This document shows positions 3,540 through 18,232 of a stretch of DNA of 32,435 nt, piece by piece (the stretch's first letter is position 1; the number at the start of each line of letters is the position of its first letter). Source of the DNA: Anthoceros angustus (taxonomy: Eukaryota > Plantae > Anthocerotophyta); NCBI GenBank assembly GCA_010909165.1, contig VJWM01000369.1:1-32435 (forward strand). The letters are read 5' to 3'. The translations under genes and the position numbers were made by a program. Below the pieces are notes generated by a model. The model searched no databases. It was not told the DNA's origin and saw nothing but the letters and a program-made list of their open reading frames with translations.

Positions 3540-6500
3540 CCTCAAGTGATTCAAGGTGACAACTTTAAAGACAAAGATAGATTCAACGGCAGGCGATGTA
3601 TGGCAACAGTGCCCAAGGTGTCTGCACGATGGACTTATGGAATATTGTCAGCGATGCGGAAGAATGTTCCACTTGGGACTCGATGCTATAGATGAATGGG
3701 AAGCCAAAGATCGGAGGCAGACGCGTTTTAATGAACGGACTTACAAGCAATGGTACTCCAAGTTGCGACGCAAAACACCGCATGAGATGTGGGAGAAGTT
3801 AGCTCGACTTTATGCCTCCAAAGATGGAATGAGCTTATTGATCGCCACCGTCACTTATATACTATAAGGATGAAGGAGATTCCTTACAACAACACTTGAG
3901 CAACTTCCGTGTGCAAAGAATAATTTCAATGCATCCTCAAGAAAACTTACAGAGAAACAAACTTTTATTGCTCTCTCGCCACTTGCCGCCTCCTATAGGC
4001 CCTTTGTGACAACGCAAAATGCGGTCCTTAGAGTGCACAAAAGCAGAAATTAATCGGCTCCCAACGCTGGATATCGGTAAGTGAATTAATTGGAGCACTT
4101 ATTGAGGAGGACGCGTCGAAATGAAAATCCCGATCAGCCCGCCAAGTAATGTACGGCCGAGGAAGAGGGCGTGGCCGAGGCGCGGAAACTTCACTCCTAG
4201 GACTCCTACTCAAAATTTTCAAGGACCATCCACTTCTTCATTTAAACCTTCAAAAGGCATGAAGAAGGCTGGAGTTACAATTGGTGCAAGATGACCAACC
4301 ATATGGAGAAGGATTGTTGGAAGAAGAAAAATGGTGAGCCAAAGAAGGAGGTCACCGGGCACATGTTGCCGTTAAGAAGAAGCCCTCCACGGCAACTCCA
4401 TCAGCACTCATGCCTTGGCAAGTTCCAAGCCATCAAACCAAAATTGGTATTTAGACAGTGCAACATCTCATATATGTCACGACTTAACTTTTTGAGTCGA
4501 TTCGCCATCAAAAGGACAACAACTCCTAGGCGGCGACCATAACCTCACCATATTTGGTAGGTTCCGTGGCATTAAAGTGCTCCACCGGGTTCTTACTCTC
4601 TCCCATGTCCTTTATGTACCCTCCATGTGCAAGAATCTAGTGTCACCGCTAGTTTATGTCAAGAACATAACATGCAAATTATCCTTGAAGCCGATTTGTG
4701 TCTCCTTTACTATCATACTAATAAGTATCACACAACTGCTCGGAACACTAGAAGATGGACTCTATAAACTCTCGGTCAAGTGGGTCCGTTACACCTCATC
4801 AATGTAGCCTCCCATTCCACTCTTCAAGCACCATGCTTTGGCTGTCGATTAGGTCATCCGAATAGCCAAAAGCTTATCCAAATGTCTAAGGAAACATAGA
4901 ACTCCTGTATTCCTAAACTTGAACCTCTCACGGTGTGAAGCTTGCGTCATAACCAAAAATTCCACAATCCATCCCCTCGGAGGCTAGGCACCCTTAGAGT
5001 TGGTTCACCAGACATTTGTGGTCCCTATATCGCACCTTCATTTAGTGGTTGTAGATATTTTTAACCTTCATCGATGATTATTCCGGTTCGTCCTCACCTA
5101 CATCCTCCGCCATAAGAGTCGCCTTTTCTTTCTTCAAAGAATATATGATGTGGGCGAGAGACTTAACAGAAGCTTAAAACTCTTCGCTCCGATAATGGAG
5201 GAGAGTTCACTTCAAAATTTTTGAATTTTGCACAAGGTATAGCGCAACAACTTAGTGTGGTACACACCTCACAAAATGTAGTGAAAACAAAATTTACGCC
5301 TCCGAGATCACAGTGTTTGCTCACCCAAGCTACATTATCTAAAAGTTATTGGGTGAAGCTATATTGACAACATATCTCCTTAATAGATAACTTGGTCAAG
5401 GCATGACTCCATATGAAGCTTTCTTGGGAAAACCTTCATTGATCATTTACGAATCTTGGATCCCCGCTATGTGTTCATCCCCAAAGTACAACGCAGAAGT
5501 CGATCCCAAGGCGACCAAATATACCTTTATTGGCTACAGAAGGCATTAAGGGTTACAAGTTATTTGACCCATCTACCCGAAAGCTCATTTATGCTAGGGC
5601 GTGACCTTTCATGAATCTCATATTCTTTCTCCTATTATGGCATCTGCTCCCATTACTCCCGATGCTCCTTCCTCTGCGCATCCGAGCCTTCCACTTTGAT
5701 GACGATGATTTTGTCATCATTCATTCACTCCCTCCAGCAAGCTCCTATGGATGAACCTCATTGCGAGGAGGAGGAGGAGTTAGAATATATTCCAAGGCGA
5801 CCAACTACTCCGGATCGATTTAGAAGAACCTCAACATTTAAGCGATGATGAAATCGACTATGATGTTGAAATTCGTGAGGAGGATCGTATTCCTTTGAGG
5901 ATGAGCCGTCGGCGAGCAAGTGGATGAATTCGACGACGAGCGAGCAAGAACTGCGTTACACCGCACAGAACCACTCAACAAGTGGTCGACATTGAAGAAC
6001 ACATTCAACAACCGCACCAAGGTACAATCTTAGGACTAGACCACTGTTGCAGGACTGCTGGATGGAAGGAACCACCTTTGGGATATCTTGTCACTGACCC
6101 CATTTCTCCTCTCACACCTTATTATCAAGCTGTTTACAAAGCCACAGTTGATCCGGAGGAACCGCTAACCTTGAAACAAGCATTTTCCTCTCCGAGAAAG
6201 ACACATGGAAGGTAGCGATAGATTGATACAACTCTTTAGTAGAAAACTCCACATGGGAATTAGTTAAACCACCCAAAGGGAGAAAAATAGTGGGAAGTAA
6301 ATGGGTCTTTAAAATCAAACGTAAGGGTGATGGTTCTATTGAGCGATATAAGGCAAGTAGCGAGAGGGTTTACCGATACCGGGTTTAGATTACATACCAG
6401 GCTACCTATGCACCTGTAGCAAAGTTTGCCTCCTCGAATTATAATAGCCTTGTGCTCAACATGACTTACATCTTCACATGATGGACGTCAAAGCGCCCTG

Positions 6501-9582: not shown

Positions 9583-9839
9583 TGATGAAATAGGTCTAGC
9601 TTAGGGCACTATTCATTAGGGCCTCATTACTTAAACATTAATTTAGAGCTAGGGCTTTGGGTAGTTAGTTGTTACAACAACTTATAGTTACAACAACTTA
9701 TGGTTGCAACTACTTATGGTTACAACAACATATTGTTGTAACCACCCAACCACCCAGCCTATTTAAAGGCTTGTACTTTACTCATTAATTAATTCATTCC
9801 ATTGTTTCTCTTCTATCTAAGAGCTATTGATTCTCATCA
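9583..9839 (+). repeat. Copia 3' LTR (257 bp)
   Basis: Differs from the 5' LTR by only a few substitutions and short indels; followed by TSD GTATT. Confidence 0.97.
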
Positions 9840-10245
9840 GTATTCTCAAGGAGGTAAGCACACCGCGGGTTGTATTGCTGAGCCCATGTGAGGACCTGAT
9901 GTAGATCCCTGAACAGCCCTGAGCGTGCATCTTGTAGACCAGCTCCATGCCCAGCTTGGGAGAACCCCTGGCATTCCCAGCCAGCAATCACCATATCCAC
10001 ATTTCCCAAGGCCTGAATGTGGCCTTCTTGAATGTAACGGACATCCTGCGGTAGAGCAGTGAAAGCACTGTGATAGGCCTCCAAGGCGATTCTTTGTGGA
10101 ACGCTCATGCACCCTTGCGGCTGAACTCTGCGATACGGCGTCTTTGTGACATCATTGTCACAATACACGTATCGTATATGGCGATCCATCATCAAGAGAG
10201 CCTCCGGCCCGATCAGATCCGCCAAAGAGTTCTACCACCGTGTCC
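9840..10245 (-). pseudogene. C5 cytosine methyltransferase, N-terminal half (motifs I-VI)
   Basis: Motif I VVELFGG (10218-10238, adjacent frame); II YVYCDND; III LPQDVRYI; IV VDMVIAGWECQGFSQAG (9950-10000, catalytic Cys 9971-9973); V GLQDARSGLF; VI YLLEN(T), which ends at the Copia TSD. Confidence 0.92.
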
Positions 10246-10599
10246 CAGACGATGGCGCCCATGTAATCACATTGTGATCCGGCCTCGATCTTGAGTGGTG
10301 GTTAACACTGAATCAACAAGTGCATCACTGCACTCTGTCTCTTACATCTTGTAGCGTGAGCTGCTCGGATGATCGGGTTGTGCAAGGGCATGTTGCAAGC
10401 TGTGAGATCCATGGGACTGGGAATGGCGTCATCAGCTTCAAGATTGTGCATACTGGCCTGGTTAGCATCTTGGACTAGCTTCACAGCATTGCACGGGACA
10501 GGCTCCTTGCTAGCATGGCACACCACTAACGTGACAGTCTCGGTGGCCACACTGCCGTGCAAGTCCAAGGGAATATGTGCTAAACGCCGTCCTCCCTGC

Positions 10600-10900
10600 T
10601 GCCAGTCAGGCGGATAGAAGGCCTGCTCCGTCCAATTATCCACTCCTACGCCAGGTGGGAAAAGAAACTCCTGTCCTAGCAGCAGGTCGTAGTTTGTGGC
10701 CGTGGTCACCAAGCACGGCAGAGACATGGTCATGGCATCCGATGAGCACGGATTCAATGTGATGTGCACAGCTCAAGTCTCGCCACACACAGGCTCCACG
10801 GCCCGGTGCGGATGTTCCATGGGGATTTGAAGTGCTTCTCCTGCAAACCAAGCCGTCTTGACTGCCTATAATGGTGGCGCGATGTCCAACACCACCACAG
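10600..10900 (-). pseudogene. Gypsy aspartic protease (retropepsin)
   Basis: Degenerate VVLD-x-A active-site region near 10885 and C-terminal YDLLLGQEFL motif (ORF 10302..10769). Confidence 0.7.
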
Positions 10901-12875: not shown

Positions 12876-14239
12876 TGTAAGTGGGGACCGGCTAACCCTA
12901 ACGGTGGTGCAAAGGATCCTTGTCCGGGCTCTACGCTGGTAGGTCCTCTAAGGACAAATCGTGGTGCCCTTCTCCTTCTCACGAAAACCACAGGGCCGTC
13001 CCTCGTTATAAGCGATGCAGTGGCTATCTCCCTCTTCACCGGTGGCATGCCCCATGTAATCCGCCCGATGAGTCAAGGAAGCCAGCATCAATTGTCATGC
13101 GGAGGAAAACCTTAGCTGCGAGAATCGGTGTGAAACACAAACACGCCAATCTAATGCTCGGATCCTCCCTCTGACCTCAAGCTTTTTAGATGCCTCACTC
13201 ACACGAGAATCCTCACTGTTGACTCACTCCTCGTGCTGTACAAGACCCAGCACCTACCCAGCAAGAGAAGTGTTGGCTGCACATAGCCAAATTCCCCAAC
13301 TAAAACCCTTAGTGATCAACTTCTCCCGGGCATTCAGTCCTGTTTCTCACTCGAAAGTAGACAAAAATGATACCAACGGATTCGTCTCAACGAGGCAAAC
13401 AAGATGGTATGCAAATTGAAAGCAACCGACTCGTGTGGCGATCGCTATGAGCTCTGGACGGCCGTGGAAACTTGCTGCGGTTGAGACATGGGAGGACTCA
13501 AAAATTATGAGAGGGCCTTGAGTTGTGCGGGCGGGCACGGCCTGGAAAATCCGCACCGCCCAGCACCCACGGTAGTAAAACCCAACAAGTCCTGCGACAA
13601 TCGACCATGCGAAACCCTAGCAAAATGCGTCAAGCCCATAGGCGGGGTCAAGCTGCGAGCCGTGTCAGACTCCTCCATGCTCAGGCCAAGGCAGAATCAA
13701 GTTGAATGCTTCTCGGCGATTGTCAAAATGACAAACACCGGCTCACATGTCTTGATGCTCACTTCGATTCGAGAAAATTAAAGGGGCTGCCCTACACGGC
13801 TGCCTAGGTGATAAGTCCGCGAACGCACATTACACACATTGCCACAATGCCGAGCAGCGACACACACAATAGGTCTTTGCATTCTGACCTAGAAATTCGA
13901 CAACAACAAAATTGCGTGTGTTTTAGCGTTCCTCCTAGGGACTTGACAAGCGCCTTCCACGAGCCTTGGTCTTGTGCTCCAACCGCCTTGCAACCACCTT
14001 GCGTCGTGCCGATGGCACCACACTCTTGGTGCGGCATCTCTTGGATTGGAGTGATCATATACGCTTTCTCCCACGGCTGTGAGAGGGAGACTGGCCCAAG
14101 CTTGGCCATTTTGCGGGTTATTTCCCGACTTTCTGTTTAAGGGCATTTTAGTAATTATCGGTGCAAGGGTTAAACTAAGCTAACAAAACCTACTTGCTAA
14201 GCCCTAGCTTCTAAGAGTTAGTTCTAGCATCGTTTCTCA
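12876..14239 (-). repeat. Candidate LTR of the DNMT-Gypsy element
   Basis: Non-coding ~1.36 kb directly upstream of gag, bounded on the minus strand by TGAG...TACA and preceded by a purine run AAAAGAG(n). No second copy in the window to confirm. Confidence 0.35.
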
Positions 14240-15037
14240 CCTTGCCCCCCCCTCTTTTGTTTTGCAGCCTTGAAGGTGCAGGCTTGAAGGTGCAGTGGGG
14301 TGCAAAATTCATCATAAATATGCAATTCATAATTTAGGATGATAAAAATTTATCATAAATATATAATTGTATACCCTTTGTAGACAAATATCTATCCTAT
14401 CTATCACTTGTCCCTTTACCTTGAATGTATTATGTGTGTATGCAAAGCACAAAAGGTATAGAATCCATAAAATCCAAAAGAGCGGGAGCTTTTGCGTTGG
14501 TGTGGGTCAAATCTGGTGTGTCCTAACCAAAATAACATATTTCCGGTCATTGGTATACAACGGGCATGTCCTGGTCTTGGGTTCAAGTTGTGGCTATGGA
14601 GTTATCGGGAATTAAAATATGGGCGCAACGACTGGACCCTAGTCTCTCGTACACCAACTACATGTCGTGCAGAGAGCGTGGTGTGTCATTATCAGCGAGA
14701 CCAAGTTGGGGGACTGGTCACTAGCAGCTGTCCTGATCCGCTTCCAGCTTGAGCTAGGGCGGCCGCTCTGGCCCCAGTCAGTCGGGCTACTGCGCCTGCC
14801 ATCGCCGGCCCCGCTGCTCCGCTCTGCATCTGCATGTGGAGCGTGAGCATGGAGGACGCAACAATCATTGCATCACCCCACCCTGCTGCCTTAAATGCGT
14901 CCCCTGTTGGAGCCTCGTGAAGAGCCTCGGAGAGTCTGAGAGCCATGCCATGTTTTTTGTGCAGGAGCCTGCGAATTGCGGCACGGGGACCAGTCTGCGA
15001 TTCCTCTCCCAGCGACGCACAGTCAACGTGACTCAAG

Positions 15038-15130
15038 CCAGACAGCTGGTTGTTGGAGAAGTCCATTGCCTGCTTCAGAAGCTGGTTTGGTGTGGTAGCC
15101 ACTGGACTTCTCCAGCAACCACCTTTCTGG
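15038..15130 (+). ncRNA. Pre-miRNA-like hairpin (candidate MIR locus)
   Basis: 36-nt arms 15038-15073 and 15095-15130 pair with 4 mismatches and 2 G:U pairs; the G:U pairs form only on the + strand transcript; no bulges; ~21-nt partly paired loop. I do not recognise a known family. Confidence 0.6.
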
Positions 15131-16361
15131 TTAGTTTTGAGATCTCGGTGTGCTAGTTGCTTCCGACGACTCCCGACCCGTGGCCGCCGGATGTGATTGT
15201 GTTGGACGCCGCCGCCCGGTTTGATCGCAGATCTTGCTGTCGAGGCTGCAGGCTGCTGCCTTGGTCTCTGTCGGTTCACCGATCTCCCTCGGCGGGAGCT
15301 GCGCGGGCGCTATCGCCAGGCGGATGTCGTAGATTCTATTTCTGCTGGCTAATTGCGTAAGTTGTGGCCAGGCAAGCCTTTGTTTGTTCCGCACTGATTG
15401 TCTCCACTCCCAGATCTATGAACTGGTACTGTGAATTGTGTCGACGGCTGCTCGTCTGATTTACGCCACTTCTGTGATGCATGCAAAAGACCATCATCTG
15501 CGTTGCCGAATTGTAGCTTCTGGTAGGCAGCTATTTAGAGATAGTCTACATTGGCGTAACTCCCCTGATATTGGTGAACAACACGTGCCTCCCGCTAAGG
15601 GCCTGTACGGACATCACTCTCCTTTCGCGCTCTTTCAGGCATGGTACTCTGGATCCGGAATTTGCTCACACTCCCGTGTACGTTTAGACGACAGATGCGC
15701 ATCAAAAGCATGATCGCCAATAGAAACAGTGGTTAACGGCTACGAAAAGGATTTGCCAGCTTTTAAGACCTACTCCTTTATTGTACATTAAGAGTCTTCA
15801 CAAAGGTCAGCAAGACAGCAGCAGAGAAACTTTTGCCATAAGGTAATCGCGCAAACTAGGTAGTCGAAACGTCAAGAAAACTCGAGTCTTAAATGTCAGG
15901 AAAACTCAAGAACTAGTTTCGAGTAAGAAAGCTCGAGCAAGCTAACTAGATAGTCCAAGTGTTAGAAAAACATTCTCATCCACAGTACAGCGCACTGCAT
16001 GCCAACCTTCCTACAAAAAACGAAGTGGCGTTACGTCCTCGCGGCTCCAATATATGAGAACGAAGGACTGCGGGTCATGTCGTTAAAAAGGAGCACCAGC
16101 TATGCAGATAACCTGTACAGAGATGAGTATGCTTCACTCTAAGCTGACCGAACCAATAGTCCCTTGTAACAAATATGGTAGGCTGGCACATCCTGGTCTG
16201 CAGAGGCTGTGCCCTGTCCTGGTGCTAGTTGACGCTCCCTGAAAGTCATAGCAAGGCTGTCTCAAGTAACAGTCTTCATTTATCTCCACCAACCAGAGGC
16301 AGACCTGGCCATGATGATCGGACGAGTACTCCATGTAACCAAGCTGAAATCACTACATGGC

Positions 16362-17746
16362 TCAGACTCCCAAGACCACTCTCCTCCTCTTTGCCAAGGG
16401 AGGGGAGGCCGGGGCCGACTGAAGACCAAGATCTGGAACCAGGAAAGCATCGTCAAACTCTGGAACCAGAGCCATGTCCTGCTTCCCTTTGCCCTTCAGG
16501 GTGCCGTTCACCCTTCCCGGTCTGCTAGACAATCCCGAGGCAGCAGTAGACAGCTGCGGGACTTCATGAAGCGATTCGGCATACACCTGCTCATCAAAGA
16601 GGCTAAGATCTGCGGTCCAGTCGAAGTCTCGAAGATTCGGCACATCGGCCTACACAAAAAGGAAAAAGTTAAAAAAACAAACCGATTCCTTAAAAACCTT
16701 TGTCCGTCGGGACACAAGACACCCACGCGAATCACAGAACATCTGAGAAAAGAAAACGACGACGACGGACGATTCCAAAGAAAATATTTCAAAACTTCAA
16801 GCGGCAGAAAACGTGAAACGAGATAGCTACCTTGGATGAGCAAACGTCTCCTAAACTGTAACCATCTGCCAGCTCCGGTATGTTGAGCAGCTCCTCCACA
16901 CGCCAACCGGGCACACTCTCGGTCAGGTACTCGGATATGCTGCTCCTCCTGGCGGCACCTCCATTCCCGCCCTGGCTGAACAACTGGCCGTAGGGAAGGG
17001 CGGAATAGGTAGGTCTAGAAAGAGCCCCTGCAGTCCCACCACCAGCACCGCCGCCGACCACGACAGCATTCCTCCCCGTGGAAACCCCGCTACTAGCAGG
17101 CTGCGGAGCAGGGGGCGGAGGCGAAGCCTTGGGCACCTGGTACAGCTTCCCACCGCTCACCGACGGGCTGGTGACGGCCACAGGCATGAGCGGCAAGGAA
17201 TGGGAGTGCGACTGAGAGTGCGAGTGCGAATGGGAGTGCGAGTGCGAGTGCACTGCATCCTCCGGCACCGAATCCCCGGCCCGCACCTCCCCCCGTATGG
17301 CCTCCAAGGCAACCCTGGTCCCAGGCACCAGGAACCGCTGATGGCCGGACGAAAGGTGGTTCACGGAGTGGATAGACACATCGCACTCCCGGCACAACAG
17401 CGCGCGATCCTCTAGGCAGAAAAAGAAGCCATTCTTTTCCTGCACACCACACCACAGCACACCATCCGACACCGTGAGCTTCCATCCATAGCCGTAGCCA
17501 TAACCGTAACCATGACCACAAACAAAGCTCCTCATTCCCCACATCCCCAGGTGTACCACTAACCTGGCAAATGTCGCAGCGGGGCGAGTCCCCGACGTTC
17601 CCGAGCAGCGGCACCCGGTGATGCTTGTTGGCCAACTTGTTGGCCGCGTGCACCCGCAGGTCGCAGTCCACGCAGAGCGCCGCCTCGTCCGCGCAGCACA
17701 TCACCGAGGCCGGCGCCCGCTCGCACACATCGCACTGCACTCGCAT
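16362..17746 (-). CDS. BBX22: Double B-box zinc finger transcription factor, structural group IV, BBX22/LZF1-like; exons 17746-17564, 17439-16831, 16649-16362; 359 aa
   Basis: B-box1 [45 protein letters not shown]; B-box2 CDICQ|[24 protein letters not shown]; two phase-0 GT-AG introns; [22 protein letters not shown]|AD junction, EVPQL..ASGL, FLVPDLG, C-terminal KRRR; no CCT domain. The symbol means closest resemblance; orthology is untested. Confidence 0.93.
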
Positions 17747-18232
17747 CTTGTTACGTCTCCGCCGCGGCGTGGCGGGGCCGCAGCATCCGCGATGGATCCA
17801 AGCTCTCCTCCCTGCCCTTACCTTTGCCTTGCCTTGCCTTCCCGTCCCCTCCGTTCCCCTGCAGCCTTCCCGCCTCCACGAGTGGCTGTGGCTGGAGAGC
17901 TCGCCGAGGCCGCAGAACAGAGGGTTGGCTGGGAGCTGGTGGCGCCAGCAGAAGGCCGTGTGTGGATGTGCGGAATGCGGTGGTGGGAGGGCAGCGGGAG
18001 CGACCGCCGGTAGCCGAGCCCGCGGCACCGACCGGCGGTCGCCAGGCCCGTGGCATCAAATATCCAGGAACCCTGGCCACAGAAAGAGAGGGGCCAGCGG
18101 GCACGTCCCGTCTCCAGGGTGCGGGAGACCCGGTCTCCGGCCCCCTGGTCCCATCGTCCCGCGGCCCCAAGTCGGAAGCCGCATCACGATTACGCCCGCG
18201 TCCCGGCAGCCGGTGGCGGGCACGGGCCACGG

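Follow-up and report, generated by a model that had tools for sequence, protein, structure and literature searches.

A Conserved Hornwort Hairpin with Arms that Spell a Plant LRR Core: a Candidate MIRNA Gene Directed against LRR Receptor mRNAs

Introduction

Does a short hairpin whose arms spell the repeat core of plant LRR receptors act on the mRNAs of such receptors, or does this spelling only record the origin of the hairpin? The question is raised by a locus in a contig of Anthoceros angustus (VJWM01000369.1, 32,435 nt, analyzed over its full length and referred to as the window). MicroRNAs that restrain receptor genes are documented in seed plants, as far as the available text of two reports goes (PMC4651229, PMC6289781). 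Judged by titles and the openings of abstracts, no literature on a miRNA directed against LRR-RLKs was found for lycophytes, bryophytes or hornworts, and according to the accessible part of a 2022 review, a characterized miRNA repertoire exists for only four bryophyte species. A conserved example from a non-seed plant that uses the same LRR core as conifer miR1313 would show that this type of control arose repeatedly and outside seed plants, and it would provide a single locus whose deletion would test the release of a set of LRR receptors. Although the class of mechanism is known, the locus is of use as a concrete and conserved candidate for which a target class can be predicted.

Results and Discussion

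A Stable Hairpin within a Transcribed Stretch

The locus is an inverted repeat with arms of 34 nt each (15038–15071 and 15097–15130), which are 85% complementary, spaced by 25 nt and second in length among the 97 inverted pairs of at least 20 nt in the window. On the + strand, positions 15020–15150 (131 nt) fold with −61.4 kcal/mol (z −6.35), which none of 200 shuffles equals; the corresponding − strand folds with −53.6 kcal/mol (z −5.26). The initial annotation had described a 36-bp imperfect stem: folding confirms a stable + strand stem, while the size was approximate, as 33 pairs are counted in 15038–15130 without a low-confidence inner helix. The core of this stem comprises 19 consecutive pairs with one G:U (15047–15065 with 15103–15121), and the G:U pairs formed on the + strand within the LRR-spelling part are 15037:15131 and 15053:15115. 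When 120-nt windows from the two strands (3232 in total) are ranked by energy index, the hairpin comes sixth, and the five ahead of it are part of a palindromic tandem repeat within the direct repeats 2344–2600 and 9583–9843. The stem is retained in the centroid fold of the entire 918-nt host stretch. It forms a single stem-loop of 93–110 nt, hence shorter than 300 nt, that is more stable than shuffled sequences and has an MFE index of −1.0. We place the predicted pre-miRNA hairpin at 15032–15141 (+), where the fold has a lower stem of approximately 15 nt beneath the 19-bp core.

Evidence for transcription comes from RNA assemblies of Anthoceros angustus and its relatives. The 23 runs available from four organisms and seven studies are all assembled contigs, and none is recorded as RNA; six of them were examined: X1 (organism A, the window's own) as well as X2, X3 and X7 (close relatives, organisms B, C and D) were compared over 14200–18000, and X2, X3, X14 and X20 over the hairpin. 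The neighboring B-box zinc finger (BBX) gene (15750–17746, −; CDS 17746–17564, 17439–16831 and 16649–16362; 3′ UTR to about 15750) is the sole intact gene found in the window and encodes a protein of 359 residues. The best matches that carry a name are proteins from liverworts, mosses and lycophytes, at 39–42% identity across all of exon 2, and no hornwort protein is named among the matches. A quick tree of 61 proteins leaves the BBX protein outside every well-supported named group, the top identity being 59% (Marchantia). Past the second B-box lies a His-Ser repeat (17204–17251, −; eight units of 6 nt), and unrelated contigs matched BBX solely through this repeat. Both BBX introns are skipped in all four runs compared over the gene (X1, X2, X3, X7), which identifies the contigs as RNA assemblies; they show neither strand nor ends.

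RNA contigs from the window's organism and from all three relatives span the hairpin, which sits roughly 600 nt from the BBX end within a transcribed stretch of about 0.9 kb located 3′ of BBX. In X1, one contig that is identical to the window (14763–17949) joins the hairpin stretch to the BBX mRNA, and the 2905-nt contig of X14 resembles it in length and layout. In X2, X3 and X7, separate contigs of 960–1159 nt cover 14806–15678, 14705–15559 and 14718–15678, respectively, and the BBX contig aligns only from 15738–15788, so that the contigs break at 15678–15788. No cover was seen over 14200–14700 in any of the four runs, which we do not take as proof of a transcript start. The base composition changes in the same region: Over 15000–15500 the + strand is T-rich, with an AT skew of −0.2 to −0.4, and over the BBX 3′ UTR it is A-rich (+0.2 to +0.35), with a flip near 15700, and an AATAAA occurs on the − strand of the BBX 3′ UTR at 15782–15777. 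Base skew and the breaks in the unstranded contigs suggest that the hairpin transcript lies on the + strand and converges on BBX; the skew thereby favors the + strand transcript proposed in the initial annotation. The host stretch at 14763–15680, assigned to the + strand by base skew, is likely an unspliced pri-miRNA, with contigs starting at 14705–14806 and aligning to about 15680. We infer two convergent transcripts with meeting 3′ ends, which would explain the fused contig of X1. At 15678–15790 the hairpin transcript and the BBX mRNA appear to meet or overlap with their 3′ ends, possibly as a short cis-antisense pair.

The Arms Read as a Plant LRR Core

The 3′ arm translates on the + strand as LDFSSNHLSG (15102–15131), and the reverse complement of the 5′ arm as MDFSNNQLSG (15037–15066, −), a plant extracellular LRR core; both translations given in the initial annotation are reproduced. 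The LRR peptide of the 3′ arm is non-coding, since in-frame stop codons flank it on both sides. Of 30 positions, 5 differ between the arms, and each of these differences preserves a strict plant-LRR pattern, in line with the earlier remark that they fall at variable or synonymous LRR positions. As 46 of 90 and 47 of 90 possible single changes preserve this pattern in the two arms, five out of five has a probability of about 0.035. The pattern is what we take to be the plant consensus and was composed after the peptide had been seen, which makes the test generous. In all six frames of the window the strict pattern matches at two places only, namely the hairpin arms, and it matches in none of 300 shuffled windows and in none of 20,000 shuffled hairpins, which strengthens the previously proposed LRR derivation of the arms. 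Among 20,000 hairpin shuffles, 36 match a looser pattern consisting of the core plus G, which has 1.1 matches per shuffled window.

Database searches with such short peptides need to be read with care. A 20-residue query around the 5′ arm gave 11 matches in the PDB, all of which are plant LRR receptor ectodomains, including BRL2 (which itself carries DFS-type repeats), an LRR-RLP, BIR2, SERK1, TDR, PSKR1 and At1g27190. The best E-value was 0.00093 versus 0.0011 for a control frame that matches a lectin; a second control frame had no match in the PDB. Because the lectin control scores equally well, the E-values carry no weight, whereas the purity of the PDB list for a single class does. Pfam found no LRR in arm peptides of 20 and 57 residues, and the 57-residue frame had no match in the PDB. 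A 30-residue query against 1.84 billion proteins in a representative-protein search returned three matches, all unrelated repeat proteins and none of them LRR; a search of the ESM Atlas gave no usable match, and a scan of bacterial and archaeal genomes with a 26-nt arm pattern gave none.

At the nucleotide level, the 19-nt stem core is found exactly in 30 metagenome loci, which is a raw count. Of the 28 frames that were long enough to be scanned, five (two of them identical) are LRR arrays above Pfam cut-offs in which the match lies in the D-F-S-x-N frame, and in three more, from one family, the 19-nt motif follows a weak LRRNT. In the printed frames of the 30 loci, neither a second hairpin nor anything that resembles a plant receptor gene is seen. 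Five loci (L002, L011, L013, L023 and L029) form one protein family in which the 19-nt motif is located just past a weak LRR N-terminal cap, recognized by Pfam in three of the five below the cut-off. Among the stretches listed from a supplement with Anthoceros receptor sequences, DFSSN repeats are present in a spruce and a Selaginella receptor. Judged from these sequence comparisons, an LRR origin of the arms is likely, though not proven.

The Arms Are Invariant among Close Relatives

In the three relatives, 70 of 873, 62 of 855 and 72 of 961 letters of the host stretch differ from the window (7–8%), in addition to 49–84 gap letters. Differences in the runs of B, C and D were examined over 14960–15215. 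Within this region, a block of 133 nt (15023–15155, +) contains only two substitutions, at 15088 and 15092, both of which are in the loop region and recur in every run compared here, one each of B and C and two from separate studies of D. Among the differences listed (8 of 9 by place for X2), none of the 68 arm bases is changed in any of the four runs. With regard to indels, the 12 of 22 that are listed all lie outside 14998–15155, and contig-end distances exclude them from 15022–15088, but not from 15093–15155. When both loop substitutions are applied, the stem remains intact (−57.8 vs −56.5). The binomial probability of at most two changes in 133 nt is 0.0003–0.0008 on the rate of the whole stretch and 0.005–0.08 on local flanks alone; because the three relatives share most differences, these counts amount to about one independent comparison. 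The neighboring BBX coding exons carry 19 changes in about 370 positions and 39–45 in 609, corresponding to 5–7% substitutions.

Conserved arms combined with a variable loop are a MIRNA-like pattern. Together with the RNA contigs that span the hairpin, this pattern adds weight to the MIRNA-like character that the initial annotation had proposed. At 80% likeness, one contig per run covers the hairpin in all four runs, so that no transcribed paralogue and no source gene with a long match appeared; a source transcript with a long arm match was found in none of the four runs at this likeness. The shortest contig pieces reported were 31–35 nt, which is longer than a 21-nt target site.

Candidate Mechanism and Targets

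Taken as a whole, these observations make it probable, in our judgment, that the hairpin is a lineage-specific MIRNA gene that was born from an LRR fragment and whose 5′ arm product acts on a subset rather than on most of the LRR-RLK/RLP mRNAs. The proposed mechanism would start from a primary transcript of the + strand, about 0.9 kb long, that folds into the stem and ends head-to-head with the BBX 3′ UTR. Base-to-loop processing by DCL1 cuts about 15 nt above the stem base. In the candidate, a lower stem of this length (15032–15046) is followed by the perfect core, which would fit such processing and would release the duplex 15047–15067/15103–15123. The predicted mature 5p small RNA (15047–15067, +) has 21 nt, a 5′ U and ends that we infer, and is antisense to D-F-S-x-N-x codons; the predicted miRNA* (15103–15123, +) follows from geometry, assuming 2-nt 3′ overhangs. 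The register with the widest LRR pairing is 15045–15065. Finally, the RNA of approximately 21 nt from the 5′ arm would direct the cleavage of this subset of receptor mRNAs.

Plant MIRNA duplexes have at most five mismatches and at most three asymmetric bulged bases, and the predicted duplex shows 19 consecutive pairs with one G:U. In other hallmarks of MIRNA genes, the locus is transcribed in four organisms with a coding role rejected, and the changes that separate the relatives within the block fall in the loop (two) rather than the arms (0 of 68). The LRR reading fills 30 nt of the stem, exceeds the 21-mer and stops at the stem base, which is why the hairpin may have originated by inverted duplication of an LRR-coding fragment, and 0 source transcripts were seen at 80% likeness. 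None of 4227 Rfam families matches at the gathering threshold; the best scores are 17–19 bits versus thresholds of 41–140.

How broad the target set might be can be estimated from codon usage. The G residues at 15049, 15052, 15055, 15058 and 15061 lie opposite third codon positions, where G:U wobble would accept C or U and tolerate synonymous variants; the same pattern also follows from a source gene rich in C-ending codons (BBX GC3 0.72). Using BBX codon usage, a target penalty of at most 3 is reached by encodings of LDFSNNQLSG with a probability of 0.08–0.39 (8–39%), by those of LDLSNNQLSG with 0.003–0.16 (0.3–16%) and by YNN variants with 0.0. The initial expectation that many LRR-RLK/RLP mRNAs could be targeted is hence too broad; because the modeled breadth is narrow, a subset or one clade of receptors is the more likely target, rather than the whole family. 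Anthoceros species possess 60–109 LRR-RLKs, of which 16–44 are in subfamily VIII-1, 10–13 LRR-RLPs and 3–4 NB-ARC genes, according to the available part of the survey (PMC9579050). As a lead only, subfamily VIII-1 would be a first place to look for targets.

A bolder reading, which we hold only tentatively and consider rather doubtful, is that a bryophyte-grade lineage arrived independently at a miRNA that recognizes the repeat core of surface LRR receptors; amplified through phasiRNAs, this miRNA would be a master brake for a receptor clade that has expanded. Given few NB-ARC genes and a sizeable subfamily VIII-1, miR482-style control would in that scenario have fallen on surface receptors. 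Moreover, as the 5′ arm of either strand is antisense to the LRR repeat, read-through from BBX could add a second silencing RNA, which, if true, could tie receptor levels to BBX expression.

Alternative Explanations

The preferred reading has to be weighed against four others. There is a minor though appreciable chance that the locus does produce a miRNA or short hairpin siRNAs, but with an LRR reading that reflects origin only, or chance, and with a loaded strand or targets unrelated to LRR receptors. Fold and conservation would agree with this, as they are silent on the loaded arm: Both arms are invariant, and both predicted strands start with U. It is also compatible with the lack of any LRR transcript on the arms at 80% likeness and with short-peptide searches that mislead. 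Evidence to the contrary is provided by the five arm differences, all of which keep the LRR pattern (p about 0.035), by the rarity of the strict pattern by chance, and by the antisense reading, which occupies the 5′ arm within the perfectly paired core. An unlikely option is that the hairpin is a structured BBX element, either in a long alternative 3′ UTR on the − strand or in a cis-antisense transcript that regulates BBX, and that no miRNA is made. The X1 contig joins BBX mRNA and hairpin as a long 3′ UTR would, the X14 contig is similar, and the − strand folds well, too. Yet the contigs of X2, X3 and X7 break between hairpin and BBX (a weak hint only), these breaks coincide with the flip of the AT skew and with the − strand AATAAA, the hairpin lies about 600 nt from the BBX end, and the LRR codons would not be accounted for.

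It is quite unlikely that the hairpin is a neutral relic, either a MITE-like element or a short piece of LRR sequence duplicated in inverted orientation, that lies in transcribed non-coding DNA. The window is rich in retroelement remains, the relatives are close, and the local flanks are fairly conserved in substitutions as well (P up to 0.08), all of which a relic would accommodate. Against it, no duplicated flank that could represent a MITE target-site duplication is present at three candidate end pairs, and the hairpin is single in the window and represented by one contig per run; the MITE fragment considered in the initial annotation thus finds no support. Furthermore, the arms are invariant, in contrast to the 5–7% substitutions in the neighboring BBX coding exons. 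It is scarcely credible, finally, that a short coding frame explains the conservation. Two frames that start with ATG do exist, of 68 codons on the + strand (from 14950) and of 120 codons on the − strand (from 15066), and the conserved block ends at the stop of the + frame (15154–15156). Both changes within the block, however, are non-synonymous on the + strand (W to R and C to F) with no synonymous change, indels flank the block, insertions of net 13 nt upstream shift the + frame in organism D, and Pfam matches neither frame. The frameshift largely refutes the coding explanation.

Relation to Known Receptor-Targeting miRNAs

Several known systems bear on the reading of the hairpin as a MIRNA gene directed against LRR receptors. 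The statements compared here derive from the available parts of the cited papers. In Solanaceae, sly-miR6022, sly-miR6023, can-miR-n026 and miR-n016 are likewise lineage-specific and aimed at surface LRR receptor families, namely RLPs and LRR receptor kinases: The tomato miRNAs miR6022 and miR6023 cleave Hcr9 RLPs, and pepper can-miR-n026, a trigger of phasiRNAs, has degradome support for 17 RLP targets (PMC6289781). Compared by description and across different plant lineages, miR-n026 and miR6023 strike the LRRNT region, whereas the candidate would strike the repeat core. A parallel at the motif itself is offered by conifer miR1313, whose reverse complement encodes, read by eye, S-N-N-N-F-S-G and hence the same LRR core motif (PMC4651229), in a register shifted by about 10 nt toward the S-G end relative to the candidate. 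For miR1313, 43 targets including kinases and resistance-type genes are predicted in Scots pine (PMC11765084), and a study in spruce gives its phasiRNA target as non-coding (PMC4651229). We also considered membership of the candidate in the miR1313 family and rejected it: Compared by eye with the sequence given in PMC4651229, 12 of 21 positions are identical to the 5′ arm, which makes miR1313 a parallel and not a relative.

With respect to its presumed birth, the candidate resembles MIR482/2118, which originated by inverted duplication of NB-LRR genes and whose arms, when translated, still give part of a protein of the targeted family; a conserved protein motif serves there as shared target site (PMC4651229), as it would in the candidate. 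The two differ in the target, which is the P-loop of intracellular NLRs for MIR482/2118 and would be the surface LRR core for the candidate. They also differ in what is left of the origin: Spruce MIR482 precursors have arms of 176 nt with BLAST-significant similarity, whereas 30 nt remain in the candidate and its source gene was not found.

In the genome paper of Anthoceros angustus, 180 novel miRNAs are described and made available through Dryad (PMC7027989, available part), and the candidate sequence may be catalogued among them without an LRR interpretation. Four arm motifs of 14 letters were absent from the main text of any relevant paper, with matches in two unrelated papers only, and arm motifs were also absent from two supplementary files of the genome paper; in the supplements of a 2017 paper on fern and lycophyte small RNAs they matched coding sequences only. 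According to the available portion of the latter paper, hornwort small RNAs were not sequenced there.

Retroelement Remains in the Rest of the Window

Apart from BBX, the window largely consists of retroelement remains. One set on the − strand (399–1897 and 9824–10772) is split by a nested insertion. A C-5 cytosine DNA methylase frame (9827–10231; Pfam DNA_methylase, E 2.9e-08) is located upstream of reverse transcriptase/RNase H remains (402–1001); retrotransposons that carry a methylase occur in charophyte algae and dinoflagellates. The direct repeats 2344–2600 and 9583–9843, each of about 260 nt, start with TG, lie 7.2 kb apart and enclose weak remains of a Pol polyprotein (4496–4804, E 0.0015); they are likely the LTRs of the nested element. 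The 16-nt palindromic tandem repeat within these direct repeats gives the strongest folds of the window.
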